DNA of 64,000 nt from an uncultured delta proteobacterium (lineage in GTDB: Bacteria; Desulfobacterota; BSN033; UBA1163). The stretch spans positions 160,001 through 224,000 of the forward strand of contig CAVPSJ010000012.1 in NCBI GenBank assembly GCA_963708295.1, written 5' to 3'. Numbering within the stretch: position 1 is the first letter of the stretch; every line of letters begins with the position of its first letter. A program made the translations under genes and the position numbers. Shown piece after piece: positions 45,566 to 63,848 of this stretch. The notes under the pieces are model-generated. The model made no database searches. It saw only the letters and a list, made by a program, of their open reading frames with translations, and was not told where the DNA came from.

Positions 45566-46949
45566 CTACTTCTTCGGATAGTATTTCTCAAGGTACTCGT
45601 CGCGCACACGTTTGAGTTCGCTCTTGGGGAGCATGAGCGAGCAGATTCCAGCCAATGCGAAGACTCTCTTCGATGGAGCGGTTCTCGTCCTCACCCTGGC
45701 GGACGAACTGGTCCTCGAAGGCGTCGGAGAACTTCACGAACAGGACGTCCGCCTCGCTGAGCGCCGACTCGCCGAGAACGACCGCCAGCTCCTTCGCGTT
45801 CTTCCCTCTCGCATAGGCCGCGTAGAGCTGGTTCATGAGGTCCGCATGATCCTCGCGGGTCTTGCCGGCGCCGATTCCCTTGTCCTTCAAGCGGGAAAGG
45901 GACGGCAACACATCGACGGGCGGATAGATGCCCTGGGCATGGAGACCGCGGTGGATGATGATCTGTCCTTCGGTGATGTACCCGGTGAGGTCAGGGATCG
46001 GGTGCGTTTTGTCGTCCTCGGGCATCGTGAGAACCGGAATCTGCGTGATCGACCCCTTCTTGCCTTTGATCCGGCCTGCACGCTCGTAGATCGTGGAGAG
46101 GTCGGTGTAGAGATAGCCGGGGTAACCCCGCCTGCCGGGGACCTCTCTGCGGGCAGCGGAGATCTCGCGAAGCGCCTCGCAGTAGTTCGTGAGGTCGATC
46201 AGGATGACCAGCACGTGCATGTCCTTCTCGTAGGCCAGGTACTCGGCCGCCGTGAGCGCCATACGGGGCAGCGCAATCCGCTCGATCGGCGGGTCATCCG
46301 CAAGGTTCATGAACAGGACGGAGCGCTCGATGGCGCCGGTCCGCCGAAAGTCCGCGACGAAGAACTCGGATTCCTCGAAGGTGATTCCCATGGCGGCAAA
46401 GACCACCGCGAACTTCTCGCCGGTCTTGAGCACTTTGGCCTGACGGGCGATCTGGGCCGCGATCCGGGAGTGGGGAAGACCCGAGCCCGAGAAGAGCGGG
46501 AGTTTCTGTCCCCGGACCAGCGTATTGAGGAGGTCGATCGTGGAGATCCCCGTCTGGATGAATTCGTTCGGGTAGTCCCGGGAGAAGGGGTTCATGGGGT
46601 TGCCGTTCACGTTCAGGTACTTCTCCGGGATGATGGCAGGCCCATCGTCGATCGGGCGGCCGAACCCGTCAAAGACCCTCCCCAGCATATCGATGGAGAC
46701 ACCGAGCTCCATGCCTTTGCCGAGGAACTTCACCTTGACGTCCTGGGGTGAAAGACCGCTCGTTCCCTCAAAGACCTGTACCATGGCCTTGGTCCCGTTC
46801 ACTTCAAGGACACGGCCCCTCCGCATGGAGCCGTCGGAGAGCTTGATCTCGGTGAGTTCGCCGTAGGTAATCCCTTCGACGCCCTCCACGAGCATCAAAG
46901 GGCCTGCAATCTGCTTCACCGTTCGATATTCTTTCGTTACACTTGGCAT
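45566..46949 (-). CDS. V/A-type ATPase subunit B (frameshift near C-terminus)
   Basis: [40 protein letters not shown]; true end [16 protein letters not shown]. Confidence 0.95.
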
Positions 46950-46964
46950 TGCGGGTTGACCTCA

Positions 46965-48723
<1,759 letters not shown>

Positions 48724-48745
48724 ATCATTATCCTTATCCCCTTCT

Positions 48746-48994
48746 CTAGCAGTTTGCTGAAAGAGTCATTTTTCGCAGGCTGCTCAAAAATGCCCGGATG
48801 CCAGGCCCCAAAATCCTTCGTAGGGGCAATTCATGAATTGCCCCTACACATACGCTGCAACAAGCCTTCCCCGTGCTTGACACGAGAAGGATGAGGGGTC
48901 CGTTGCGACGAATAAGGAGCAACTCCTGGCACGCCGCCGAGACGGTGAGGCGGCCGGGAACGCCGCAGATGGGCGTCTTTCAGCAGCCTGCTAG
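48746..48994. mobile_element. MITE with terminal inverted repeats at a CTAG site, containing a nested GTAG-type REP palindrome (48820-48847)
   Basis: CTAGCAGTTTGCTGAAAGA ... TCTTTCAGCAGCCTGCTAG; GTAGGGGCAATTCATGAATTGCCCCTAC. Confidence 0.7.
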
Positions 48995-49311
48995 TCTTTA
49001 CCCAGAAGATCTATCCCCAGGGAGCGTTCAACGGATTTTCGCATCTCCTGGAAGCTTACATGTTTGCTTCCCTCATGGGTCGGGATGATGGTCAGTACTG
49101 CGGAGGACCTCCCCCGAAACTCCTCAATGGCTTTCGGAGCATCCTTGGCCATGCTTTCCGTGACGAGCACCAAACCGATCTCCGGATCACGGGACAGGGT
49201 GTTCAACTCATGCATCAGCTTTTCGCTGTCATCGATGGGAACGATCTCGAACCCCACCCCCTTGAACCCGAGGATAAGATGTTTTTCACCGACCGCCACG
49301 GCCTTAGACAT
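48991..49311 (-). CDS. V/A-type ATPase subunit F
   Basis: AVGEKHLILGFKGVG, VERSLGIDLL; operon position. Confidence 0.9.
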   Translation of the reverse strand: MSKAVAVGEKHLILGFKGVGFEIVPIDDSEKLMHELNTLSRDPEIGLVLVTESMAKDAPKAIEEFRGRSSAVLTIIPTHEGSKHVSFQEMRKSVERSLGIDLLGKD

Positions 49312-50291
49312 AGCCCTCCCTCAATCTCTGCCTGAGCAGGGTCTGATCGATGCGATTGAGCCTGCCGTTCACAACGAGCTTCATGTTTTGGATCTCCGCC
49401 TGAAGCCCGACGAGAAACGCAAAGACACGTTCCGGTCCGGCGGTTTGCATTTTTCCATCGCGGGCGATTTTGGTGAGATGGTTGGTCACTTTGAGCTCGA
49501 AGCCTGAGATCTGTTCATCCTCGGGCAGTCTCAAGCGATTCCGAGAGGATATCCCCGACTTCTCCTCCCACCACAGACGGCCAGTTCTCGGTATTGGGCA
49601 TGCCGGAGAGTTCGGTGACGACAGGGGTAAAATCACCAAGCGGAAGCAGGTATTGCTGGTAACGACGGAGCGACTGCTGCTGCCTCAGCGCCCGCCAGAG
49701 GATGATGACGATGTATGAAAGCACCCGGTCGTGAATATACGCGCTGACGAGCTCCGACTTCAGTTGATGCGCGATCGAAAGCAGATTTCTTAAATACGCG
49801 CCGTCGAGAAGGATCTCCAGGATCGCCGGATCGATCTCGCCGGACTCCCCGGTAATCCCTGTCTCCGATTCTCGCAAAGAGGCGGGGAGGTCCGCTTGAT
49901 CGCCTTGACGGATCGTGATGAGCTTTTCCTGGGAGAGCAATCCGAAATGGAAAGGAAAATCCGAAGATCCCGTCAGCGCACTCTTCAGATTCAGGTAATC
50001 GCCCTGCAGAAGAAAAAGGTCAGCGGGAAGGCTGGATGGGGAATCTCCCTTCAGAGAGAGCGCCATCTCGTAGAAACATCGGTCACAAATGTCGCTGAAA
50101 TCGTCCCACACCGTTCCCGGCGTAAGGTAATCCCTCAGGAAGGTGTCCTGCAAATGCTGGATCAGGTCGCCCAGATGTTCCTGGGCAATGAGATTCAGAA
50201 AGAACTCCCGAGGCAGGAGTTTCCCTTCCAGGACGCTGATCCTTCCGGAGACGAACCCCCAGCGCATGTTGTTTTTTATCCTCGGAACCAT
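49304..50291 (-). CDS. V/A-type ATPase subunit C/d (frameshift near 49510)
   Basis: SGRISVLEGKLL N-terminus; GPERVFAFL..EIQNMKLVVNGR..LRQRLREGYV C-terminus. Confidence 0.85.
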
Positions 50292-50297
50292 ACCCTA

Positions 50298-50887
50298 TTA
50301 TCCCGGAAACAGCTCTGATGCAATGGCAGGGAGCATGTCATGCTCGATGTCCTGAAGCATCGTATCCAGTGTCTGATCCACTTCGAAGTCGGCGCTCACG
50401 AAGATGAAACCGCCACGTTCCGGTAGCGGAGTCATTCCGATCAAGGGTGATTTTTGCATCGCCACGACCTTCGTTCAGTTCAGAAAGGATCTTCTCGAAA
50501 AGGTCCTTCTCATCCGGGTGGACCCGGATCTTGCCCTCGTAGCTTCCCGCTGCCTTCTCAATCAGCCGCCCCATGACCTTGGCGTACTTCTCCGGAGGCC
50601 AGGCCAGGATCTCATGCTTGGCCCTTTCAAAGAGGGACTTCAGGAGGATGTTTCTCTTGTCGAGGATCTGCTTGCCGGCTGCTCCCTTGGAGCTGGATCA
50701 GCTTTCGGCTGTACTCATCTTCGATGGCCTGTATTCTGAATTTCCAGAGCCGTTCAAACTCCTGTTCCGCCACCTCTTTTTGTGACTTCAGGAAATCGCC
50801 ATTCTTCTTTTTTGCACTATCGATGATGCGCGTCGCTTCCGCTTTGGCCTCCGACAGGACCGCCTGACGGATCTTTTCTAATCCCAT
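50298..50887 (-). CDS. V/A-type ATPase subunit E (frameshifted)
   Basis: MGLEKIRQAVLSEAKAEA start; GGFIF..FEVDQTLDTML..IASELFPG* end. Confidence 0.8.
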
Positions 50888-50904
50888 GATCTTCTCCCCC
50901 TCCC

Positions 50905-51420
50905 TTATTTAGGCAGGAATTGAAGCATAACCGGCTGGGTCAGGAAAACGATGAAGAGGATGGTCGCAAGCAGTGCCACGACCGCATACGTTTCAACGAA
51001 TGCCGGGAAAAGGACCGCCTTACCGGCAGCCTCCGGTCTGCGGGCCAGGAGCGAAATACCCGCAGCAGAGGCCTCTCCCTGATAGATCGCAGAGATAAAC
51101 TGGGCAAGACCATCTCCAAGCCCGATAAAGAAGAGCGCAATGCCTGTGCCGAGGGATATCTTCAGCGGGCCGCCGCCGATGAGCCCTGTCTGGGTCATCA
51201 TGAGAATCGCTGCGATAAATCCGTAGAACCCCTGTGTGCCGGGGAGCGCAATCATCACCAGCATTCGGCCGAAGAGTTCCGGCTTCTCCCGCATCACGCC
51301 GGCAGCCTGGTGAGCGGCGATGGCAATACCCCAGGCAGAGCCGGAACCGGCCAAACCAAAGGCCAGGCCCGCACCAGCAAAGCAAAGACCGCGTCCTATC
51401 TCGATCGATTCAGGTATCAT
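50905..51420 (-). CDS. V/A-type ATPase subunit K (c), Na+-binding signature
   Basis: 4-TM proteolipid with LPGTQGFYG, SAIYQG, VETYA. Confidence 0.93.
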   Translation of the reverse strand: MIPESIEIGRGLCFAGAGLAFGLAGSGSAWGIAIAAHQAAGVMREKPELFGRMLVMIALPGTQGFYGFIAAILMMTQTGLIGGGPLKISLGTGIALFFIGLGDGLAQFISAIYQGEASAAGISLLARRPEAAGKAVLFPAFVETYAVVALLATILFIVFLTQPVMLQFLPK

Positions 51421-51487
51421 TTCTCCTCCTCCGTAGTTTCTTGGAATAGGGACCGGACCTGTCGTCTCCCATCCCGATCCGGTGCCC

Positions 51488-53607
51488 CTATTTCCCCTTG
51501 AACAAACTCGGCTCTCCGGACCTTTTCACGATGCACGCAGGTGAATCAAAGCCAAGCGGCTGGAAAGGACGGGAACCCCCCTCATAAAACCGGCCAAAGA
51601 ATTCAACGAAGATGAGCCTCATGGAGTGCACAAATGCCCCAAGGACACTGATGCAGAAATTAAACAGATGACCGACCACGAGCACGATCAGAAAGAGGAT
51701 GAACCCGACGTAGGGTACCTCCCTGAGCATGCCTGCCATGAGGTTGAAGGTCATGGCCACGATGGAAGTCGTCAGACCGAGTGCCAGCAGACGGCAATAG
51801 GAAAGCGTATCGCCGATGAAAGCCGTGATGCCGTAGCTGCCCATGATGCCGTAGAGACTCACCAGGCCACCTGCCAACTTCCCGAATGGGCTTTTGAAGT
51901 CCCTGCCCTGAGTCAGCACGAGGCCAATGGCGCCGACGATAAAAAGCCAAAATCCCGTATTGAAAAGGGCGGCAGGGATATCGGTGAATATTTTCCCGAC
52001 CATCATCAAGAGACCGGTCAGGGTGACAATCCAGCAGACCCCGTCAGAGAATGCCCCCAGAAAGTCTCTATTTCTGAGGGCGCCGTACATCTTGAGGATA
52101 ATCCCGTAGAACTGGTTGCAGATTCCGATACCGAGTGCACAGAGAAGGGCAACGATGGTCTTGTCGATGGGATCGATCACCACGAACATCTCCTGCAGAC
52201 GCAGGAGAAAGTTGTCCTTCCCGAGGTAGTCAGGCTTGTAAAGATCACCGAACCACGAACCCGTGAGGGCGCCGAAGAGGATGCTGCTGATCCCTCCGTA
52301 GAGGAGGATACGTGAGAAGTTATTCAATCCTTGGTACGGTTTTGTCTTTGCCGCAAGATAGGCCCCCAAGGCTGTGAGCATGATCCCGTAGCACACGTCG
52401 CTGAAGCAGATACCGAAGAACAGGTAAAAGTTGACCTGCAGGAAGGGGGTGGGATCGAACGACTTGTACGGCGGAAGACCAAACATCTCCACGAGGAGTT
52501 GGATGGGCCTGAAGAGGTTCGGCACGGTGATACTCACCGGCACATCATCATCCGGACCGGGATCCTGGATCGTGACCTCGGAGTCCGGGAATTCCTGCCT
52601 CATGGTGGCGAGAAATCTCTCCGCATCCTTTTTGCGGATGTACCCGCCGATCACGTGGACCCACTTGCCCTGGACCCCCTTGGTGGAAGCGAGCTGGGTG
52701 TTCTTCATGTTCTGCCAGTAGGCCCTCAGAATGAGTAGAGAGCGCCGGCCTTCGCCGGCTCGATGACCTTGGGCGAGAGATTTCACTTTCTCGGCCACGT
52801 CATCCACTTTCTGTTTGTACTCGGCTAAATCAGACCGCAGTTCATCGATCCGTTCGGAGATCTTTCTCGGAAAGCTTGGGGAGCTGAATTTCATCGAATC
52901 CGATCGATGCCAGGTCCTTGCGGACGCCCTCACTGTCTTCCGCAAGAAAGGCAATCACCATGCGCACCCGCTCTTCCTCCCCTTTCGATGAGGGGCTTCC
53001 GCTCTGGGAGGGCCTGGTGACTCGTTTCCGGCTCACTCCGGGTTTGATTTCCTCCCATGCGGCTCGGTTCCATGGCTCCGTGCCCTCGTTGAGAAGGGTG
53101 AGATTCTTTCGGGGCAGGTTCCCAAACACAAGGCGTGTCTTCACGGGGCGAGTGGAAGTCAGCCATGTTAAAGGGTAGATCGCTCAAGGGATCGAGTTCC
53201 TTCAGCTCGTTTTCGATTTCGCTCGATCACCCGTTCGGCTGACCGGTACCTCTCATCCAGTTCACCCGCATCCCTGAACGTCTGTTCAAGGTCGAACTTG
53301 TCTATGACGGACTGGATCTCCTGCGGCGAGGTGACGAGCGGGACGGGCGCCAATCCTTGGACGAAACTCTGCTTCTCAGGAGAAAGGAGGTTCATGAGGT
53401 TCAGGATGAAGTCGATCTGGTGAAGTTTTTCATCCACCTCTTCCGTGCTCGTATCGCAGCGTTCGGAGAGAGGGCTCCCCTGACTCCTGGATGTCCTTGA
53501 GGTCGGTCACCTCCATGACCCCAAGACGATTGATTGTCTTCATCAGCCTGTCTGTTGGAATTTCTCGGACTGATCAGGGTCACCTTTTTAATGGGTTCAA
53601 TCGCCAT
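51488..53607 (-). CDS. V/A-type ATPase subunit I (several frameshifts)
   Basis: MAIEPIKKVTLI start; GLPPYKSFDPTP, DTLSYCRLLALGL, HSMRLIFVEFFGRFYEGG. Confidence 0.9.
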
Positions 53608-53610
53608 AGG

Positions 53611-53924
53611 TTATAGCTCGCTGAATTTCGTGACAATCTTGGTCAATCTGCTCTTTTAACGTGCTGCCTGCAATCTGATCGATGGCATTCAAAGCCTGGG
53701 CAAGATCCTTCTCCGCTTCGGCAACGGAGCGCTGATGCTTCTCCTCCATCTCTTTCTGAAAGGCTGAAGATTTTCTGTTCCGTTTCTTCAGCCAGTTTCC
53801 GGCGGTATGCCTCAGCCTCTGCGATGGCGGATTTCTCCAACTCTTTTGCCTCGGCACGGGCCTGTGCCACAATCGCATCGGCTTCCTTTTCCAAAGACAC
53901 AATATCTTCAACCAGAGTAGCCAT
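53611..53924 (-). CDS. V/A-type ATPase subunit G/H (frameshifted)
   Basis: LEKEADAIVAQARAEAKE coiled coil; first gene of the operon. Confidence 0.7.
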
Positions 53925-54101
53925 CCGGTCACCCTTCCTAAACCGTCAGCACAACCCATCCTTCAGCATCTTCCAGTGGATTTCAGAACGATACTTGAAC
54001 CACTCCGTGCAGTCTGCCAATTCTTTATTCGGCAAGAGGCTTTCGCACACAAACTAAGGCGCTCATATTACATAAAATGACTTAAAAATCAAATCCTTTT
54101 C

Positions 54102-54753
54102 CTATTTAATTTTCTGGATGTCTTTTTCTTTTCCAATCACGACTAAGACATCGCTGTCCTTGATCGTAAAGTCCGCACGGGGAACCATGGTCAATCGTTC
54201 CGGCAGCATCTCCCTCACGGCAATGACCTCAATATGGTATTTGCTTCTCAGGTGGAGCTCTCCGATCGTCTTTCCCATAAAACTTGGGGGAGGCGCTATC
54301 TCACAAATGGTGTAATCATCCGAAAGAGGAATATAATCAAGGACATTGGGGGAGATCAGGCTTCTGGCCACTTTGTCTGCCATCTCCCTCTCAGGAATGA
54401 TCACCTCTGTCGCTCCCACCTTTTCCAAGACATGCTTGTGGTCTTCATTGGGCGCCTTCACAATGATATGTCTTCACTTTCATCTCTTTAAGATGGAGGG
54501 TAATGAGCGTACTGGCAGCCAGGTCCTCGCCAAAAGAAATGATGACCACATCGTCCGGCTGGATGCCGATCGATTCGATCACCTCTTTGTCTGTGCCGTC
54601 GGCAAGAATGGCCTTCGTGGAGAAATCTCTGATTTTCTGAATGACCTCTTTATTCTTGTCAATGGCAATCACTTCAAACCCATTTTCGTAAAGATCTTTT
54701 GCGATATTAAATCCGAAGATCCCCAACCCGATCACCACCACTCGTTTCATCAA
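54102..54753 (-). CDS. TrkA/KtrA potassium uptake RCK subunit (frameshift near 54460)
   Basis: VIGLGIFG, IAIDKN, EKVGATEVIIPEREMA, DVLVVIG. Confidence 0.92.
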
Positions 54754-54858: not shown

Positions 54859-56238
54859 TTATCCCACCATGACCCCTTCCTCGGCGTAAGTCAACGTTCT
54901 TCGTCCGGTGTCTCGGGAGAGCGAGAAAGCGAGCGTCAGGGGCCCTACCCTTCCCACAAACATCATTAAAATGAGCGCATATTTCTGAAGATCATTCAGC
55001 TTCGGAGTGACCCCCATCGAAAGCCCCACCGTCCCGAAGGCCGAAACCGTATCAAAAAGGTATTCCACGAAATGGTGACGGCTCTCCAGCGGCGGAAGTT
55101 TTCCTCCTCCGGCGATCAGGAGAACAGAGGTAATGATAGCGATCGAAAAAGCGGACGCGAAAATGATCGAAATGGATCGGCTGACGATCTCCCTGGGAAT
55201 GGTCCGGTTGAAGATATTCAAATCGAGATTTCCCTTCAGCCGGTTCCACATGAGCATGACCAGAAGAGCGGCGCTGGTCGTCTTAACACCCCCACCCGTT
55301 GAACCTGGAGAGGCTCCGATGAACATGAGGACCATCATCAGGAGGATGGTCGCATTGGTCAGTAGTCCTATATCTACGGTATTGAATCCTGCTGTCCGGG
55401 GCGTGACCGACTGGAAGAAGGAAGTTAGGATTTTGGTCAGGACCGGAGCGTCTTTAATGATATGGTTTCTTTCAAACAGATAAAATAAGAGGGCACCAGA
55501 GAGAATGAGGAGGGTGGTACTGATAAGCACGATTTTTGAATGGACAGAAAGCTTTTTTTGTGTCCCTTTGAACCAGGAAAGCACTTCGTACTGGACGATA
55601 AAACCGATCCCTCCGTGAACGATCAAGCCCATGACGGTCAGATTGACGATGAGATCTCCCTGATACCCCATCAGGTTGTCGGAAAAGAGAGAGTACCCGC
55701 AGTTATTGAAAGCGGAAATCGCATTATAGACGGCATGATAAAGGGCTATCCCGGTGGGAAAATCCATGGAAAACCGGATGAAGAGAAAGAGGGTTCCGAG
55801 GGCTTCCGTGACGAACGTAAACCAGAGGACCATCTTGGCAATCACGATGAAATCCGTTCGAGGGGTGTGGAGAAAGGTTGATTGAACAATCTCTCTTCCC
55901 TTGAAAGAAATTCCTCGACCCATTAAGACGAAGAAAACCGTGGAGAAGGTGATGATACCCAGCCCACCGATTTGAAAAAGGAAGATCGTGATCACCTGAC
56001 CCCATAGGCTTAGGTCTTTTCCGATGTCGATGACGACGAGGCCCGTTACGCAGACGGCAGAGGTAGACGAGAAGAGAGCATCCACAAAACGGAGAGGCTC
56101 CTTTGAGGCTGAAAAAGGAAAACAAAGGAGAATTCCTCCTGTCAGGATCACCGCGGCAAAACTGAGGACAAAGATCCTGGTCGGGGAAAGGTATCTCGAA
56201 AAGAAGTTTTTAACTCGGATGCGAATCTCTATCGGCAT
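54859..56238 (-). CDS. TrkH/KtrB potassium uptake membrane subunit
   Basis: SAVCVTGL, SAFNNCGY, PRTAGFN, GSTGGGVKT, SAFGTVGLS, GRVGPLT. Confidence 0.95.
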   Translation of the reverse strand: MPIEIRIRVKNFFSRYLSPTRIFVLSFAAVILTGGILLCFPFSASKEPLRFVDALFSSTSAVCVTGLVVIDIGKDLSLWGQVITIFLFQIGGLGIITFSTVFFVLMGRGISFKGREIVQSTFLHTPRTDFIVIAKMVLWFTFVTEALGTLFLFIRFSMDFPTGIALYHAVYNAISAFNNCGYSLFSDNLMGYQGDLIVNLTVMGLIVHGGIGFIVQYEVLSWFKGTQKKLSVHSKIVLISTTLLILSGALLFYLFERNHIIKDAPVLTKILTSFFQSVTPRTAGFNTVDIGLLTNATILLMMVLMFIGASPGSTGGGVKTTSAALLVMLMWNRLKGNLDLNIFNRTIPREIVSRSISIIFASAFSIAIITSVLLIAGGGKLPPLESRHHFVEYLFDTVSAFGTVGLSMGVTPKLNDLQKYALILMMFVGRVGPLTLAFSLSRDTGRRTLTYAEEGVMVG

Positions 56239-56314
56239 GGATATTATTAGGAACCTTCCAATTTTAAACAAATTGACCACCCCATATTACATGAAATTTT
56301 ACAAAAATCAACCC

Positions 56315-56435
56315 GTTCGGCTCACCCGCTCGACTCGCGGGTCTGTCCCTCGACTTCGTTCGGGAAACGGCCTAAGGGGGATGAGCCGTTCAATAGACTC
56401 AAGGCCATGAGCCTGTCGAAAGGCTTGTCGATGGA
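56315..56435. repeat. Degenerate palindromic REP-like cluster (TGAGCCTGTCGAA type)
   Basis: ggctcacc/gatgagcc and agactcaaggccatgagcctgtcgaa self-complementary blocks. Confidence 0.4.
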
Positions 56436-56506
56436 AGCAGGGGTTTGGTACCGTCGAACGTATCGAACTCCACGCTCTTGCGGGTGTCGCACCTCACATT
56501 TCACAT

Positions 56507-56537
56507 AAAAAAGGCAGGAACATCCTTCCTCCTGCCT
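56507..56537 (-). terminator. Intrinsic terminator ending the microprotein cluster
   Basis: Minus strand AGGCAGGA-loop-TCCTGCCT followed by a T run. Confidence 0.7.
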
Positions 56538-56650
56538 CGTTCTTCAACAGCGGATTGTTGGTTTCTCTTATTGAAAACTGCCAACTTCTTGGAATTGCCG
56601 GATACAGCTTCGCCCCTGCGTCGAAAGGGGAACGGGGTCGACATTGGGTC

Positions 56651-56755
56651 TTAGGGTCTCAAAAAAAATACAAACCCTATCACCAATGCGACCGCTATCG
56701 CAATGACTACCACCCAGACCCAAATTGAAGCACCAGCTTCTTTCTTTTCTTCCAT
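56651..56755 (-). CDS. 34-aa single-pass membrane microprotein
   Basis: AAGGAGGTGA RBS; MEEKKEAGASIWVWVVVIAIAVALVIGFVFFLRP*. Confidence 0.7.
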   Translation of the reverse strand: MEEKKEAGASIWVWVVVIAIAVALVIGFVFFLRP

Positions 56756-56859
56756 CTCCGTCACCTCCTTCAAAAAATGAGGATCGTGCCATGTCAGGAG
56801 TAGGCTGACCTTCCATTCTTACAACGGATGAACGATCTGGGGCACCTCAAGACCATCGA

Positions 56860-57111
56860 TTAATAATTCTCCAGGTTTCTTAATAAGGTTTTCAGCTTAT
56901 CGGGGATAGAGTTCTCCTTGGGGTTAGTCTCTCCAATCTCCCCTTCAGTAATTTGAACCGGCATGATTAATTTATTATCCTTTGTAAGAAATTGAACCTT
57001 ATAGTTTCTATATTTGTAATCAATCACTTTACACTTAATACATCCATTTAAATGCATGATTGCCCAATCCAATATTTCTTGAGCCTCTCTTATCTTTTCA
57101 CCCTCGTCCAT
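56860..57111 (-). CDS. Hypothetical soluble protein (83 aa)
   Basis: GAGGAGG RBS; no recognised motif. Confidence 0.65.
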   Translation of the reverse strand: MDEGEKIREAQEILDWAIMHLNGCIKCKVIDYKYRNYKVQFLTKDNKLIMPVQITEGEIGETNPKENSIPDKLKTLLRNLENY

Positions 57112-57375
57112 ATTAACGCCTCCTCTTTTGCAACTCCATTGTCCTCCCTGCCTATAACTCCATATGAATCTTTTTTTCTTTCCTTTCAGTTATAAAACCG
57201 AAGATAGCGGATCAAGGTGGCTATGCCCAAGGTTATGACCGAAACAATCGCCCCGGGCTAGTATTGGTTCATGAATGACATAGGCGGTCGTAAGTAATTG
57301 GCAAAACCGAAGATTGTTCAGGAGTCATTACAAAGGAATCGACCCTACTCATCTTGTTTCATACTGTTCTCTCTA

Positions 57376-57567
57376 TTAAGATTGACTCTGAGTTGACGGG
57401 CCCTTATCCATTGTTTTTCCGAAGTGTGCCAATGCCCAAATCATCCCCACACCCGACATAATCACAAGCGCAAATATAATGGTGGGGTGCACGGGCAGGT
57501 GCCTAATCACCGTCCATGCTACGAAATTGCCAATGATCGGCCCAGCCACAGCTAACACTTGTTTCAT
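57376..57567 (-). CDS. 63-aa two-TM membrane microprotein
   Basis: AAGGAGG RBS; paralogous to 58411-58719. Confidence 0.75.
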   Translation of the reverse strand: MKQVLAVAGPIIGNFVAWTVIRHLPVHPTIIFALVIMSGVGMIWALAHFGKTMDKGPSTQSQS

Positions 57568-57789
57568 CTTTCCCTCCTTCCATAAGTTGACTCACAAAGT
57601 CTTGGTTCTTAAAAAAACAAGATTCCATTGCCATAGATGAAACACCCTTCCAGCGGTGTCGTGATCACTCCGATAGATGCAGGCACCCCTATCCAGAGTG
57701 CGTCACCTTCTGGTAAAGCATAAAGGTAAGGAATAGAGAATTTCCGCTCCAGATAATTGCATCAAGGGTTTTCTTGCCTTTTTCAGATC

Positions 57790-57873
57790 CTACAACTTCT
57801 TCACCGCACGCCCCATGAAGAAAATAACCCCTATCATGATGAGTGCTGCCACTATAATCCCTAGCGTAAACAT
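57790..57873 (-). CDS. 27-aa single-pass membrane microprotein
   Basis: GGGAGG RBS; MFTLGIIVAALIMIGVIFFMGRAVKKL*. Confidence 0.65.
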   Translation of the reverse strand: MFTLGIIVAALIMIGVIFFMGRAVKKL

Positions 57874-57952
57874 AAGACCTCCCTGTTTCGTGCACTAGAT
57901 TTCATGGTGTCAAAAATATGCCACACCCTATATCCTTTTCGCATTCACTCGT

Positions 57953-58387
57953 TTACTTCACGGAGAACACCTTCGAAGTCCCGCGGTATTTAGATCTCAA
58001 CTGGGAAAAAACCCGTACCTTACAATGTTTCGAATCCACCTTAGGAACATTCCAAATATACTTCCCAGAATTGGGCACATTTTCCCCAACGTTCTGCCAC
58101 GACTTCCCCCCATCTTTTGAGAACTCAACGGTCACCATCGCCCCAAATTCGGATTCCGCCGGTTCCGATTTCCAGAGGACCTCATACGAATCTTCTGCTT
58201 TGACGACATCATTTGCCTTTGGACTCAGAATCATGACCCCTTTATCTGGCTTAGCGGTTAGAATGCTGACCACGAAAATGATTGCAACGATAGCAATCAA
58301 GACCAGCATGAATCCCCCCATCGTCAAAAAAGTATAGAATTTGCTCCAAAATCCCCGCTTCATTTCTTTCGGCTCCGCTGCTGCCAT
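57953..58387 (-). CDS. Membrane-anchored protein with a periplasmic Ig-like domain
   Basis: AAGGAGG RBS; TM then ILSPK..YEVLW..VEFSKDGGKSW..NSGKYIWNVP..S..F. Confidence 0.75.
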   Translation of the reverse strand: MAAAEPKEMKRGFWSKFYTFLTMGGFMLVLIAIVAIIFVVSILTAKPDKGVMILSPKANDVVKAEDSYEVLWKSEPAESEFGAMVTVEFSKDGGKSWQNVGENVPNSGKYIWNVPKVDSKHCKVRVFSQLRSKYRGTSKVFSVK

Positions 58388-58410
58388 TATTTCCTCCTTC
58401 CTGGATGAGT

Positions 58411-58719
58411 TTAATTGGCTCTTGTTAAGTATCCTTCAAAAAGAATGAATTCAGGATTCTGGTCAAAGGCTTCCTGTCCTGTTACAGCGATACTCCCTCT
58501 GTTGAGCTTCTGTCTAGTAAAGGATTTTGGCAAAATTGGCTCTAAGTTTGACGGGTTCTTATTCGTTCTTGCAAAATGTGACAATGCCCAAATCATTAAC
58601 AATCCTCATGTGATTACCAGCGCAAAGATGATGAGAGAGTGCACAGGCAACAGAGTGATCAACGCCCATGCAACAAAATTGCCTACGACTGGCACAGCGA
58701 CACTTAAGAATTGTCTCAT
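58411..58719 (-). pseudogene. Paralog of the 63-aa membrane microprotein with in-frame TGA at codon 38
   Basis: MRQFLSVAVPVVGNFVAWALITLLPVHSLIIFALVIT*GLLMIWALSHF aligns throughout with 57376-57567. Confidence 0.7.
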
Positions 58720-58777
58720 CGTTTCCCCCTTCCATCAGTTGATTCAAAAAAAAGAAAGATTTCGCGGCCGTCTTGCA

Positions 58778-58877
58778 CTCCAATAAAAAAGCCGCTACCC
58801 GAAGTTCTATCTTCGGATAGCGGCCCGACTATCCAGTGCTTTAACCTCCAGAAATAACAAAACGTATTTCTGGACCC
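58778..58877 (-). ncRNA. Riboswitch-like leader, copy 2, with intrinsic terminator (resembles Na+/Li+ DUF1646/nhaA-I class)
   Basis: GGGUCCAGAAAUA-loop-UAUUUCUGGAGGUUAAAGCACUGGAUAGUCGGGCCGC then terminator GCCGCUAUCCGAAG/CUUCGGGUAGCGGC-UUUUUU. Confidence 0.65.
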
Positions 58878-58945
58878 CTGTCATATCCTTTAACAAAATG
58901 ACTTACTCAAAGATGTCTTATCTTTTTTTCTTATGCTACAACCAC

Positions 58946-59044
58946 CTCCAATAAAAAAGCCGCTACCCGAAGTTTTATCTTCGGATAGCGGCCCGACTAT
59001 CCAGCCTCTTAACCTCCAGAAATATTTGATATACTTCTGGACCC
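58946..59044 (-). ncRNA. Riboswitch-like leader, copy 1, with intrinsic terminator
   Basis: Near-identical to 58778-58877; differences are confined to loops/linker and one A-U to G-U change. Confidence 0.65.
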
Positions 59045-59238
59045 AAAAAGAACCCTACGTTCGATATGATGGATACGATGTAGTTATCAAACTATTCCAT
59101 GAATGTCAAGGATTTTTTCTTACCCGATCGCCTCGATCGAAGAAATGATCCTCCAAAGAAAGGCTTGTCTTTTTCTGAGAAAATTATATGATGATTTCTA
59201 TCAACAAACCTCGTCGAGGGAATAAAAAATCAATCGGT

Positions 59239-61085
59239 ATGATTCGATCGCTTCGCAAAAAAATCTTCATTGGATACGGCATCGCCCTGGCTTTGATGGT
59301 TGTGGTCTTTGTTTGGGCCCTGGTCCATCTGCTCGACCTCGGTGAAGCGAGCGATGCTATTTTGAGAGAAAACTATAAAAGCATTCTTGCCGCTGAAAAT
59401 ATGGTCTATGCCATCGAGCGACAGGACAGTGCAACCCTGCTTCTCTTTCTAGGGTACGAGGAGCAAGGCAGGAGACAGTTCCGCGAGAATGAGAGCCTCT
59501 TTTTCCAATGGTTGGCCCGGGCAAAGGATAATATTACCGTCGAAGGGGAGGAAAGAATTGTCAGCACCATTGAAAAAGAATACTCGACCTATCTGCAGCA
59601 TATCTCCGGACTTCCACCTGTCTCCAAGTCCAATCTGCAGAAAAGTGCAGCCTTTTATCACGAAACCATACTCCCCTCGTTTATTTCTGTCCGGGATGCA
59701 TGTATTCGTCTCCGTGAGATCAACCAGGAAACGATGTTTAAGGCCAGCGAACGGGCTCGCCACGTCGCAAAGAGAGCGATCTGGTCGATGGTCATTATCG
59801 GCAGCGCGGCCGTGGGGATCGGACTGGGATTCAGCCTTCTGCTTTCAAATCTTCTCGTCAAACCGGTTCGGCGCATGATGGAAGCGACGCAAAAGATTTC
59901 CGAGGGAAATTATGACGTGGAAATTTCAGTCGCATCCTCTGACGAATTGGGCGATTTGACATCCGACTTTAATCAAGATGGCCAAAAAGTTGAAAGCCTA
60001 TCACGACCTGAATATCGATCAAATCTTGGCAGAGAAACGAAAGAGCGATGCGATTATTCGAAGTATCGATGACGGAATTGTCGTTGTCGACAAGGAACTC
60101 AAGGTGACCGGGATCAATCCAACAGCGGCAAGAGCACTTAGCATTGAACCGGATCAGGTACAGAACAAGCATTTTCTTGAGGTGGTCAAGAATGAAATGT
60201 TGTTCAATTATGTGAAGCAGTCCGTTGAAACGGGCCAGCCTCCTTCCATCGAAGAGAGGAAGACGATTTTCACGATCGAAGAGGGAGAGAAACAACGGCA
60301 CTACCAATTTTCGATTACACCGGTGCATGGGAAGCCCGGGTCTTTGTTGGGGGTTGTCTTGCTTTTGCGTGATGTGACCCGCCTGACGGAATTGGACCGT
60401 CTCAAAAGCGAATTTGTCATGATGGCTTCGCATGAATTGCGAACCCCTTTAACGAGCATCGGCATGAGCATCAAGCTCCTTCTCGAAAAAACCATGGAGA
60501 AACTCGACGGGAAAGAGCAGCAGCTTCTTTTGGCCGCTCATGAGGACCTGCAAAGGCTTAAAAACCTTGTGAACAACTTATTGGATCTTTCGAAAATTGA
60601 AGCAGGAAAGATGGCGATGGAGTTTGAAAACATTTCTGTTGATAGCCTCTGCCAGAACGCAATGGGTGTTTTAAAGAACCAAATCGATGCAAAAGGAGTC
60701 AACGTGACTTTGGATTTACACCCCCATCTCCCCAACGTCAAAGCAGATGCCAATAAGATCATCTGGGTGTTGACCAACCTGATCTCCAACGCCCTGCGTT
60801 ACACTGACAGCGGAGGACAGATTCGCCTTTCTGCCGAGCGGATCGGCCCCTACATTCATGTCTCAGTCAGTCGACAACGGGCCAGGGATTCCGTTTGAAG
60901 TTCAATCCAAGATCTTTGACAAATTTGTTCAGATCAAAAGCGACAAGGCCCTTGGAGGAAGTGGTCTCGGATTAACCATCTGCAAAGAGATTATTCGTGC
61001 TCATGGCGGTACGATATGGGTAGATTCAACCCCGGGAGAAGGAAGTACCTTTACCTTCACGCTCCCGATCGTAGAAAAATCCTAA
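59239..61085 (+). CDS. Sensor histidine kinase (periplasmic four-helix sensor, HAMP, PAS, HisKA, HATPase), frameshifted twice
   Basis: ILRENYKSI, SSDELG, SIDDGIVVVD, ASHELRTPLTSI, NLISNALRYT, DNGPGIP, GSGLGL. Confidence 0.88.
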
Positions 61086-61097
61086 AAGAGGTGCTCC

Positions 61098-61791
61098 ATG
61101 ATAAACAAATCCATTTTGATCGTAGATGATGAAAAAAATATTCGCCTGACTCTTTCACAAGCCCTGGAGACCTTGGGTGCAGAGATCGATACGGCAGCAA
61201 ATGGAGAAGAGGCCTTAACAAAGCTCAAAGAGAAGGAAGTTTGGTTTGATCCTTTTGGATATCCGAATGCCGGGAATGGATGGGATGGAAGTTCTTCGTC
61301 GAGTTCGCGAGATCCGGCCCGATATCCGTGTCATCATGATCACGGCCTACGGGACGGTTGAATCGGCAGTCGAAGCGATGAAACTGGGTGCGGTAGACTT
61401 CCTCCAGAAACCATTCGATCCTGAAGAGATTCGGGAATTAGTATCACGGGTGATGGACAGAGAAAAGCTCGATGAGCATAAACTCGCAGATTATGCATCT
61501 CACCTCGAACTTGCAAAGAAATGCATCGGAGATCGTCATTTCGATGCAGCCCTCGAACATGTGCGCAAGGCTGTCTTTATCGATCCCGGACGACCGGAAG
61601 CCTTTAATCTTCTGGGTGCTCTGATGGAGATCCAAGGGGACAGAGCCGAAGCCCAGAAGAACTACCGGGCGGCCCTTTCGCTTGATCCCTCCTATGAACC
61701 CGCCATCCAGAACCTCCATCGATCAACCACCGGAAAATGGAGACAGGCAGGAGGAATTCTTCTCGAGGAGCCTAAAAAGGAAGAAAAATAG
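61098..61791 (+). CDS. Response regulator, REC + TPR, no DNA-binding domain (frameshift near 61240)
   Basis: ILIVDDEKNIR, LLDIRMPGMDG, MITAYG, FLQKPF; PEAFNLLG..AQKNYRAALSLDP TPR. Confidence 0.88.
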
Positions 61792-61796
61792 ATGGT

Positions 61797-63848
61797 TTAT
61801 TTGACAGACCATATTTTGACCCATCTTGCCGCAGCAAGGGCCGAGAGATTGGATACCACTCCCAAAAGACGGCGTTGATCAAGCAGAAGATTCTTAAAAT
61901 CGTACTCAATGCCGATCACTCCGATAATCTCCTCAAGCGATTTCATGGGTATGAAAAAGACTCTAATGTCTGGCAGCGTTTGGGTACCCGCACCCGCAGG
62001 TTCGCCGTGGGCGTACGTCCACTCCGCAACCGCCATCTCGTTAGTCGTGAGATCAATTTCAGGGTTGACTTCGAGCCCAAACCTGCAGCCTCCCGTCTTG
62101 GCCGCTGAAAAGGACAAAAGAGCGGTGCATCCACGATCTTCGAGAGATACTTGATCGCAATATGGCTGATGTGATCAAGAACCGTCGTACGAAAAAGTGT
62201 TAAAACATTTTTCCATTCGCTTGAATTCTGAACAAGCCCCCCGACGAATTGTTCAACGGGGGGAAGCATCAAAAATTCTTTGCTCATCTCTTCGATGAGG
62301 GTAATCCGCCTGATACGAAGTTGCAGAAGAAGGTTTTGCCGTTTCGTTATTTTGACAAGTTGTCCGATGATGATCGAGGTGAGGAAAAAGACCATGACAT
62401 TGATGATGTCATGGGGATGATGCATGCTGAAGCTATATCTTGGTTCGGTAAAGAAAAAATCGAAGGTAAGCAGGCTGATGATGGAGGAAAACAAGGAAGG
62501 CCCGGTGCCGAAAAGGAGGGCACTGGCAATCGTTGCGATCAGATAGATATAAACCAGGGATATGGGATTGATAAAATTCTGAAGGAAAAAGTTCAACAAG
62601 GTAACACCGACGACCATAAGAACAGTGAGCAAGTAATCCTTGGGATCGAGCACAAGTTGTCTGGGAGTGGGTCTTGCCTCTATCTCTCTTTTTTCAACGG
62701 TTGGCGTGATGAGATGGAGCTCAAATTCGCTCGGGGTGTGCAGAAGGCGTGACGCGGGCGAGCCTTTCCAGAATCCCAATAGCATGGAATGGAGGGGCTT
62801 ACCGATCACGATATGGTTAATATTATACTCACGGGCAAAACGAAGGATCTCACTCGCTACGTCTGTTCCGGAAAGAGTCACAATTTTTGCCCCCAATTCC
62901 TCGGCAAGATTCAATGCCTCAGCGATATAAGCCTTATCTTTATCCGACATCTCTTTCAGGGCGGGTGTAGAGACATAGGCAGCATACCATTCCGCATGGG
63001 CATCTTTGGCGATGCTGTATCCTTTGCGGAGAAGCTGTTTTGCATACGGACTTGGCGCAATACATACCATCAATCTTTCGCCCGCCGGCCAGGGGCCGGA
63101 AATCGCCTTCGCCCTCATATAGTTCAAAAGTTCAGTGTCCATTTTGCGAGCGGCGTGGGTGAGCGTCAGCTCGCGGAGGGCGACGAGATTGCCTCGCTGG
63201 AAAAAGTTCTGCATCGCCCGTTCCGCCTGCCTGGGAATGTATACTTTTCCTTCTTTCAGCCGCTCAAAGAGTTCTTCCAGGGGGATATCGATGACCTGAA
63301 CTTCGTCTGCCCGATCCAGAAAAGTATCGGGCAATGTCTCTTGCATACGTATCCCCGTGATCTTTTCGACGACGTCGTTGAGGCTTTCAAAGTGCTGGAC
63401 GTTCATCGTTGTATAAACATCAATGCCGCTGTCGAGCAATTCTTCAACATCCCGATATCGTTTGGGATGGCGGCTCCCGGGGCATTGGTGTGTGCAAGTT
63501 CATCGACCAGGACCACGGCAGGCCGCCGCGATAGAATGGCGTCGAGGTCCAATTCTTCAAGGACGATCCCTTGATATTCCACACGCCGTCGTGGAATCAT
63601 TTCCAGATCTTTGAGTAATGCCTCCGTTTCAGAGCGGCCATGCGTCTCTACAATGCCCACCACCACGTCTTCGCCGCGCTTCTTCAAGACATGAGCTTCA
63701 TTGAGCATGGTATAGGTCTTTCCGACGCCGGGCGCATAGCCCAGAAATATCTTTAACCTTCCCCTTTTTTCTTCCTCGCGCTGAACTTCCTTTAAGAGGG
63801 CGTCCGGATCCGGTCGTGAATGGATCTTTAAGCTGTATTAACTTTCAT
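61797..63848 (-). CDS. kdpD: KdpD sensor protein (KdpD, Usp, 4-TM, GAF) lacking the histidine kinase domain; frameshifted
   Basis: RPDPDALL, GRLKIFLGYAPGVGKTY, LVDELAHTNAPG, TTMNVQHFESLND, FDFFFTEPRYSF, GEPAGAGTQTLP; ends after the GAF domain. Confidence 0.88.

Follow-up and report, generated by a model that had tools for sequence, protein, structure and literature searches.

Two nhaA-I-class riboswitches with individual terminators, probably acting in series ahead of small-protein genes in an uncultured delta proteobacterium

RNAs of the nhaA-I class have been described in several arrangements that differ in expression platform, host lineage and associated genes. Weinberg et al. (2017) report nhaA-I RNAs that are found near one another (PMC5737381). 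White et al. (2022) describe rare nhaA-I variants that carry an intrinsic terminator, occur in Deltaproteobacteria only and precede genes of unknown function; the Desulfobulbus propionicus variant is activated by Na+ in vitro, and the variants are named Na+-II (PMC9646797). According to the same account, a single C54U change widens the response to Li+, Na+ and NH4+; in the Li+-I construct, the loop mutations G56A/G57A weaken the response (PMC9646797). White et al. also describe tandem Li+-I RNAs in environmental DNA, including a triplet in which every aptamer has a terminator behind it (PMC9646797). The review by Sherlock et al. (2022) lists six doublets and one triplet of Li+-I, and places Na+-II among the classes not in tandem (PMC9481103).

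Here, we describe a computational analysis of a 64-kb stretch of DNA from an uncultured delta proteobacterium (the window, to which all unprefixed coordinates refer) that contains two such RNAs side by side. We hold with good confidence that these are two complete nhaA-I-class riboswitches placed in series at the start of a transcription unit, where they would act as cation-responsive ON switches, most likely for Na+. Furthermore, we compare the genes behind them with those found behind nhaA-I RNAs in related genomes.

Two near-identical units lie on the minus strand as a 79-nt direct repeat (58778-58856 and 58946-59024) whose copies share 94% identity and are spaced 168 nt apart. Read on that strand, each unit consists of GGGU, a P1 hairpin, AGGUUAA and then CUGGAUAGUCGGGCCGCUAUCC; the P1 loop has diverged between the copies, the P1 stem shows one A-U/G-U difference, and the linker reads AAGAGGCU in one unit and AAAGCACU in the other. 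A preliminary description of this DNA had noted this build, likened the units to both the nhaA-I and the DUF1646 motifs and stated that nhaA-I RNAs can be tandem. The layout is as it was described, and tandem occurrence is documented (PMC5737381, PMC9646797, PMC9481103); of the two likenesses, only that to nhaA-I stands. In a cmscan search of the whole window, the nhaA-I model (RF03057, gathering cut-off 37 bits) matches aptamer 1 at 58983-59044 with 50.2 bits (E = 6.1e-7) and aptamer 2 at 58815-58877 with 53.3 bits (E = 1.1e-7), both on the minus strand. Both matches are full length (model positions 1-55 of 55), a focused scan agrees, and these two units are the only gathering-level Rfam matches in the window. 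The Na+-I/DUF1646 model (RF03071) gives no match on 56000-59400 at E <= 10, and a search of the genome yields nothing above its cut-off of 40.5 bits and nothing at the window units at E <= 1, its single genome match lying elsewhere with 17.5 bits. In the cmscan alignments all upper-case Rfam consensus positions (GGGU, AGGU(U), G-U-CGGGCC-GC) are kept in both aptamers, each of which comprises GGGU, P1, an AGGUU linker and a P2 helix with a CGGGCC loop. Membership of both window RNAs in the nhaA-I class is confirmed, and the feature is a real one.

Each aptamer runs into an intrinsic terminator on the same strand. Terminator 1 (58951-58994) is formed by a hairpin at 58994-58957 followed by T6, and terminator 2 (58783-58826), of the same build, by a hairpin at 58826-58789 followed by T6. 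The terminator scan counts 16 pairs in these hairpins when G-U pairs are included, and the hairpin fold gives 14 Watson-Crick/GU pairs at -25.6 kcal/mol, in keeping with the 14-bp hairpin and U6 first described. The 5' arm of the terminator is made up of the P2 loop (GGGCC), the P2 3' arm (GCUAUCC) and GAAG, and P2 and the terminator are therefore mutually exclusive, as had been proposed. Folding bears this out. The minimum free energy structure of the full units (99-100 nt) combines P1 with the terminator, at -44.9 and -41.8 kcal/mol and with z-scores against shuffles of -8.05 and -5.97, whereas aptamer 2 folded alone adopts P1 and P2.

Upstream lies a divergent gene whose start is at 59188 on the plus strand, so that the riboswitch pair opens a transcription unit whose promoter would have to lie in 59045-59187. 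A candidate -35 box, TTGACA, is present on the minus strand at 59104-59109; it comes from direct reading of the sequence and was not flagged by the promoter scan. No consensus -10 box was found behind it, and GATAAC/TAACTA stands there at 15-17 nt. The spacer between the units (58878-58950, minus strand) is without a credible ORF, its sole candidate being a 29-aa frame with a TTG start (58896-58807) that runs into aptamer 2; the two units are thus presumably read in series on one transcript. A promoter scan of the spacer showed no promoter-like site.

The arrangement suggests the following mechanism. Without ligand, the terminator, as the more stable fold, would form, and transcription would end at U6. 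With a monovalent cation bound, P2 would be held, the terminator would fail to nucleate and the polymerase would read through. Such an ON layout agrees with the mechanism that White et al. report from in vitro transcription of the D. propionicus RNA (PMC9646797). Because a transcript must clear both terminators, output would be the product of two read-through probabilities, and serial terminators may be expected to leak less and to give a steeper response; by arithmetic, two identical independent sites would go from 10 to 90% over a roughly 40-fold range of ligand, compared with 81-fold for one.

The genes behind the pair, all on the minus strand, are mostly small. The first ORF (58411-58719) is a chimera with an in-frame TGA at 58606-58608. 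Its N-terminal part, in which the TGA falls and ends the frame at 37 aa (58719-58606), is a paralogue of a 63-aa two-helix membrane protein, an intact gene for which lies further downstream (57376-57567), and its C-terminal ~50 aa are homologous to the C-terminus of a 101-aa family (L024:1867-2169; BLASTP E = 7e-14, 40% identity) that sits behind tandem nhaA-I RNAs in a relative (G020). A 186-nt repeat of 73% identity (57413-57598) indicates that the intact 63-aa gene and its leader were duplicated, and this duplication accounts for both the chimeric first ORF and the likeness between the leaders of the two genes. A third riboswitch ahead of the intact gene (57568-57789) was considered and rejected, that segment giving no Rfam match at E <= 10.

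The TGA aligns with Ser in nine of the ten other aligned family members, and a third copy in the same genome has Val at this position. Selenocysteine insertion or read-through was also rejected: the 73 nt downstream are without a stable, SECIS-like hairpin (z = 0.38), and the aligned residue is Ser. In our reading, the TGA reflects either a nonsense mutation or an error in the assembly. The neighbouring genes contain at least four frame breaks, which leave the sensor kinase in three pieces and the response regulator, KdpD and trkA in two each (54102-54753, 59188-61791 and 61943-63708); the three kinase ORFs together make up HAMP-PAS-HisKA-HATPase, and the trkA ORFs correspond to TrkA_N and TrkA_C. 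These breaks are either assembly indel errors or real gene decay, and assembly errors are therefore possible in this region, the TGA included. The 63-aa family is rare, being represented by 13 clusters in a large protein collection and, among 41 genomes of relatives, in the genome of the window (G000) only. It was not retained as a general regulon member, given that restriction and a third copy that is without nhaA-I. This third paralogue (L036:1191-1683, contig 13; 43% identity) lies just 3' of a TRAP-type large permease-like ORF and is followed by another 64-aa membrane ORF; no nhaA-I RNA is found there.

The second gene (57953-58387) encodes a 144-aa membrane-anchored Ig-like (Kre9/KNH-like) protein with an Asp-box, recognised by PF10342 at E = 3.2e-4, below the cut-off, and by an Atlas lead (0.88); its AlphaFold2 model is poor (mean pLDDT 59.8, pTM 0.43). 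No other gene recurs as often behind nhaA-I in relatives: orthologues that are lipoproteins of 56-74% identity follow nhaA-I at four loci (L007, L013, L015 and L023), and further orthologues do so at L037 and L038. The window protein has lost the lipoprotein signal peptide of those four loci and carries an N-terminal transmembrane anchor in its place; the anchor resembles the transmembrane segment of a small protein that follows the other tandem pair of this genome, on contig 13 (FL..GGFML motif). A contig scan for the Ig-like family matched at least 600 stretches, of which six were confirmed, and so says little on the distribution of the family. Among the matches listed, the closest named loci (75% and 67% identity) come from metagenome-assembled genomes titled Thermodesulfobacteriota bacterium and uncultured delta proteobacterium, and both have an nhaA-I RNA upstream; no D. 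propionicus locus is among the matches listed.

Three further small genes complete the cluster. A 27-aa single-pass microprotein gene with a ribosome-binding site (57790-57873) has a homologue at L011, where it lies further downstream of nhaA-I and not as the first ORF. An 83-aa protein (56860-57111) has homologues behind nhaA-I at L007, L009, L023 and L024. A ~34-40-aa single-pass microprotein with a charged N-terminus and one transmembrane helix (56651-56773) has homologues at L011 and L022 that are the first ORF behind nhaA-I. For the 83-aa, ~40-aa and 101-aa proteins alike, at least one relative has a homologue that follows nhaA-I as the first ORF. The preliminary description had named microproteins, in place of antiporters, as the regulated genes. 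None of the 37/63-, 144-, 27-, 83- and 40-aa ORFs has a Pfam or NCBIfam family above cut-off, and no nhaA gene accompanies the units; the first of these ORFs is, as a caveat, chimeric and interrupted by the TGA. The genes switched on would be that of the Ig-like membrane-anchored protein and those of several microproteins.

A terminator-like hairpin detected by the terminator scan on the minus strand (56511-56538), ahead of trkH, probably ends the small-gene cluster, and gaps of 222 and 264 nt between the downstream genes count against one long operon. The riboswitch locus is flanked by trkH, trkA, V/A-type ATPase genes and a KdpD-like sensor. trkH (54859-56280, minus strand; Pfam TrkH, E = 3.1e-63) belongs to the context and is at most a candidate target of the riboswitches; it is followed by the split trkA and the ATPase genes (TrkA_N, TrkA_C, V_ATPase_I, ATP-synt_C and ATP-synt_ab). 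The V/A-type ATPase cluster (45588-53959; subunits I, K/c, C/AC39, A and B) lies on the same strand 3' of trkH-trkA, with no riboswitch directly upstream of it.

The 20 contigs of the genome contain six nhaA-I matches, every one of them 5' of a co-oriented ORF: two tandem pairs, one being that of the window and the other on contig 13, and two single copies. Among the 41 genomes of relatives, this one included, 15 have nhaA-I matches, and tandem pairs occur in four of these 15 (G000, with two loci, G003, G020 and G038); when the phylum was sampled evenly, 14 of the 151 genomes gave matches. A check suggested in the preliminary description, covariation among homologs, gave a clear result. With the Rfam helices imposed on 48 phylum aptamers (46 distinct), 94.8% of the cells of the distinct aptamers are paired and both partners have changed in 15 of 17 pairs, values attained by none of 500 shuffles; when the partner columns are slid as a control, pairing drops to 41-53%. 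A terminator overlapping P2 accompanies 44 of the 48 aptamers (42 of the 46 distinct ones), both window copies included.

The four aptamers without such a terminator are two at L043 and one each at L048 and L049. The two nhaA-I-like aptamers at L043:984-1559, 517 nt from each other and both lacking a terminator, are in a genome (G151) that belongs to a different family of the phylum. Each precedes an ORF of its own, and the second scores 31.6 bits, below cut-off; this arrangement differs from that of the window and is probably translational. In the second tandem pair of the window's genome (L002:114-1780, contig 13), the units are spaced 219 nt apart and share 95% identity; the pair precedes the gene of a small single-pass membrane protein and that of a Cytidylate_kin2-BON domain protein. 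The two single copies (L005:1501-1972 on contig 5 and L006:1501-1972 on contig 8) lie, each with a terminator, directly 5' of a ~100-108-aa winged-helix regulator, a layout also seen at L012, L018 and L044. Both are in a duplicated segment with a tyrosine-recombinase-like (integrase) gene nearby; here a transcription factor would be under riboswitch control, and the whole may be part of a mobile element.

The identity of the ligand bears on a single nucleotide and on gene context. Immediately before the CGGGCC loop both window copies have U, not C; among the 46 distinct phylum aptamers this pre-loop nucleotide is U in 40 and C in six. Counted from G56/G57, which lie in the CGGGCC loop of the 73-nt Li+-I construct, the pre-loop site is probably the published specificity position 54. 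If this mapping is right, the window aptamers carry the U of the C54U mutant, so that selectivity for Na+ could not be predicted from it, and they would combine a Na+-II-like architecture and context with a Li+-I-like nucleotide. The genes behind nhaA-I in relatives include a GpgS-like enzyme at L010 (NF040724, E = 1.9e-111, below the equivalog cut-off), ORFs similar to it at L029 and L030, and a CitMHS permease at L013 and L015; a BON-domain protein follows the other tandem pair of the window's genome. These contexts point to salt stress. Gene context thus appears to favour Na+ or salt stress, and Na+, as a salt-stress signal, is most likely the ligand.

The RNA architecture would be the same were the ligand Li+, as in Li+-I proper, or NH4+. 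Both aptamers share the pre-loop U with most nhaA-I/Li+-I RNAs, the D. propionicus C54U mutant answered to Li+, Na+ and NH4+ alike, and the account of White et al. leaves the selectivity of the tandem Li+-I examples undetermined (PMC9646797). The mapping of position 54 is, however, itself deduced, and no nhaA gene is associated with the window units. The GpgS-like synthase, the BON-domain protein and the CitMHS permease fit salt or osmotic stress, and in the description by White et al. the terminator-coupled variants are confined to Deltaproteobacteria and have gene associations unlike those of Li+ riboswitches (PMC9646797). We regard Li+ or NH4+ as an unlikely ligand, though one to be reckoned with, and keep Na+ as the preferred assignment.

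The two units might also fail to act in two steps, if one were a non-functional recent duplicate or if unit 2 had its own promoter. Recent local duplication is suggested at two of the five tandem loci examined (L002 and L017), where the partners are mutual closest relatives with 95-98% identity, and the window locus itself shows rearrangement and decay in its 186-nt duplicated segment and chimeric ORF. The two window aptamers, on the other hand, are 81% identical and each is nearer to aptamers of other genomes, so that neither is a fresh duplicate of the other. Every conserved nucleotide is retained in both units, as are P1, P2 and a complete terminator including the U-tract, and the promoter scan gave no promoter-like site between the two. 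A single working switch is therefore improbable here, and two functional switches in series remain the preferred reading.

Tandem riboswitches for different ligands exist (PMC9481103), and the P1 loop, one P1 pair and the linker are not the same in the two window units, which might make the pair a two-input AND gate. These differences fall at positions that vary across the family, whereas every Rfam-conserved position is identical in both units and the part from P2 to the terminator is 94% identical; we consider an AND gate very improbable. That the units are dispersed repeat elements, for which the preliminary description expected scattered copies in random orientation, or plain terminators without a sensing role is scarcely credible: the single copies L005 and L006 do lie in a duplicated segment with an integrase gene, but the units are full-length covariance-model matches with compensatory changes in both helices, the six copies in the genome are uniformly oriented 5' of ORFs, and, with the upstream gene divergent, there is nothing upstream to terminate.

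These comparisons lead us to a broader proposal, which we advance tentatively and which, taken jointly, is possible rather than probable. In this Thermodesulfobacteriota clade, the U-type, terminator-coupled nhaA-I RNAs may mark out a regulon for cations or salt stress whose core would not be antiporters but the Ig-like lipoprotein and the 27-, ~40-, 63-, 83- and 101-aa families. To this core the regulon would add the GpgS-like enzyme, the CitMHS permease and a riboswitch-controlled winged-helix regulator beside an integrase. The Ig-like module, found behind three of the five tandem loci examined, would usually be driven by the tandem form, and the ligand range of the U-type aptamers might reach NH4+ or Li+.

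As a natural example the locus is clean: in an uncultured lineage of sulfate reducers, two cation riboswitches of the same class follow one another, and each has a separate terminator. Most of its value comes from the target genes. A handful of conserved small proteins recur behind a cation-sensing RNA and are thereby candidate new contributors to sodium or osmotic adaptation. Additionally, the U/C difference before the loop is a natural test of the published Li+/Na+ specificity switch. The nhaA-I family, the terminator platform and the tandem form are all already published, and the novelty is modest: U-type aptamers with terminators in tandem, a recurring small set of target proteins and a decayed first gene.

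Among known systems, Na+-I (RF03071) has a similar two-hairpin consensus, often uses a terminator platform, is turned ON by Na+ and occurs in osmotic and ion-transport contexts that include V-type ATPases; its tandem arrangement with c-di-AMP pairs different ligand classes (PMC9337991), whereas the window pair is of one class. Li+-I proper, the nhaA-associated form in Proteobacteria, belongs to the same Rfam family as the window units and shares with them the conserved nucleotides and the U before the loop. White et al. speculate that most Li+-I RNAs gate ribosome access to the nhaA ribosome-binding site (PMC9646797), whereas the window units have a terminator and no nhaA. Tandem and triple Li+-I RNAs, compared here by their published description, resemble the window in having two or three serial nhaA-I aptamers, with a terminator for each aptamer in the triplet, but precede nhaD, whereas the putative targets in the window are small membrane or secreted proteins. 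Na+-II, as described ahead of a 'hypothetical' gene of D. propionicus (PMC9646797), shares with the window units the nhaA-I fold, a terminator that overlaps the aptamer and is exclusive with it, targets of unknown function that are not nhaA, and, for the window presumably, ON polarity. The Deltaproteobacteria/Thermodesulfobacteriota host is shared likewise, indirectly supported by the titles of the Ig-like loci among the matches listed. The published Na+-II representative has C at position 54, whereas the window copies have U at what is probably the same position. Finally, Table 3 of the 2022 review counts Na+-II among the classes not found in tandem (PMC9481103), whereas the window has two aptamer-and-platform units in series with no gene between them, presumably on one transcript, in the same-class layout termed pseudo-cooperative.
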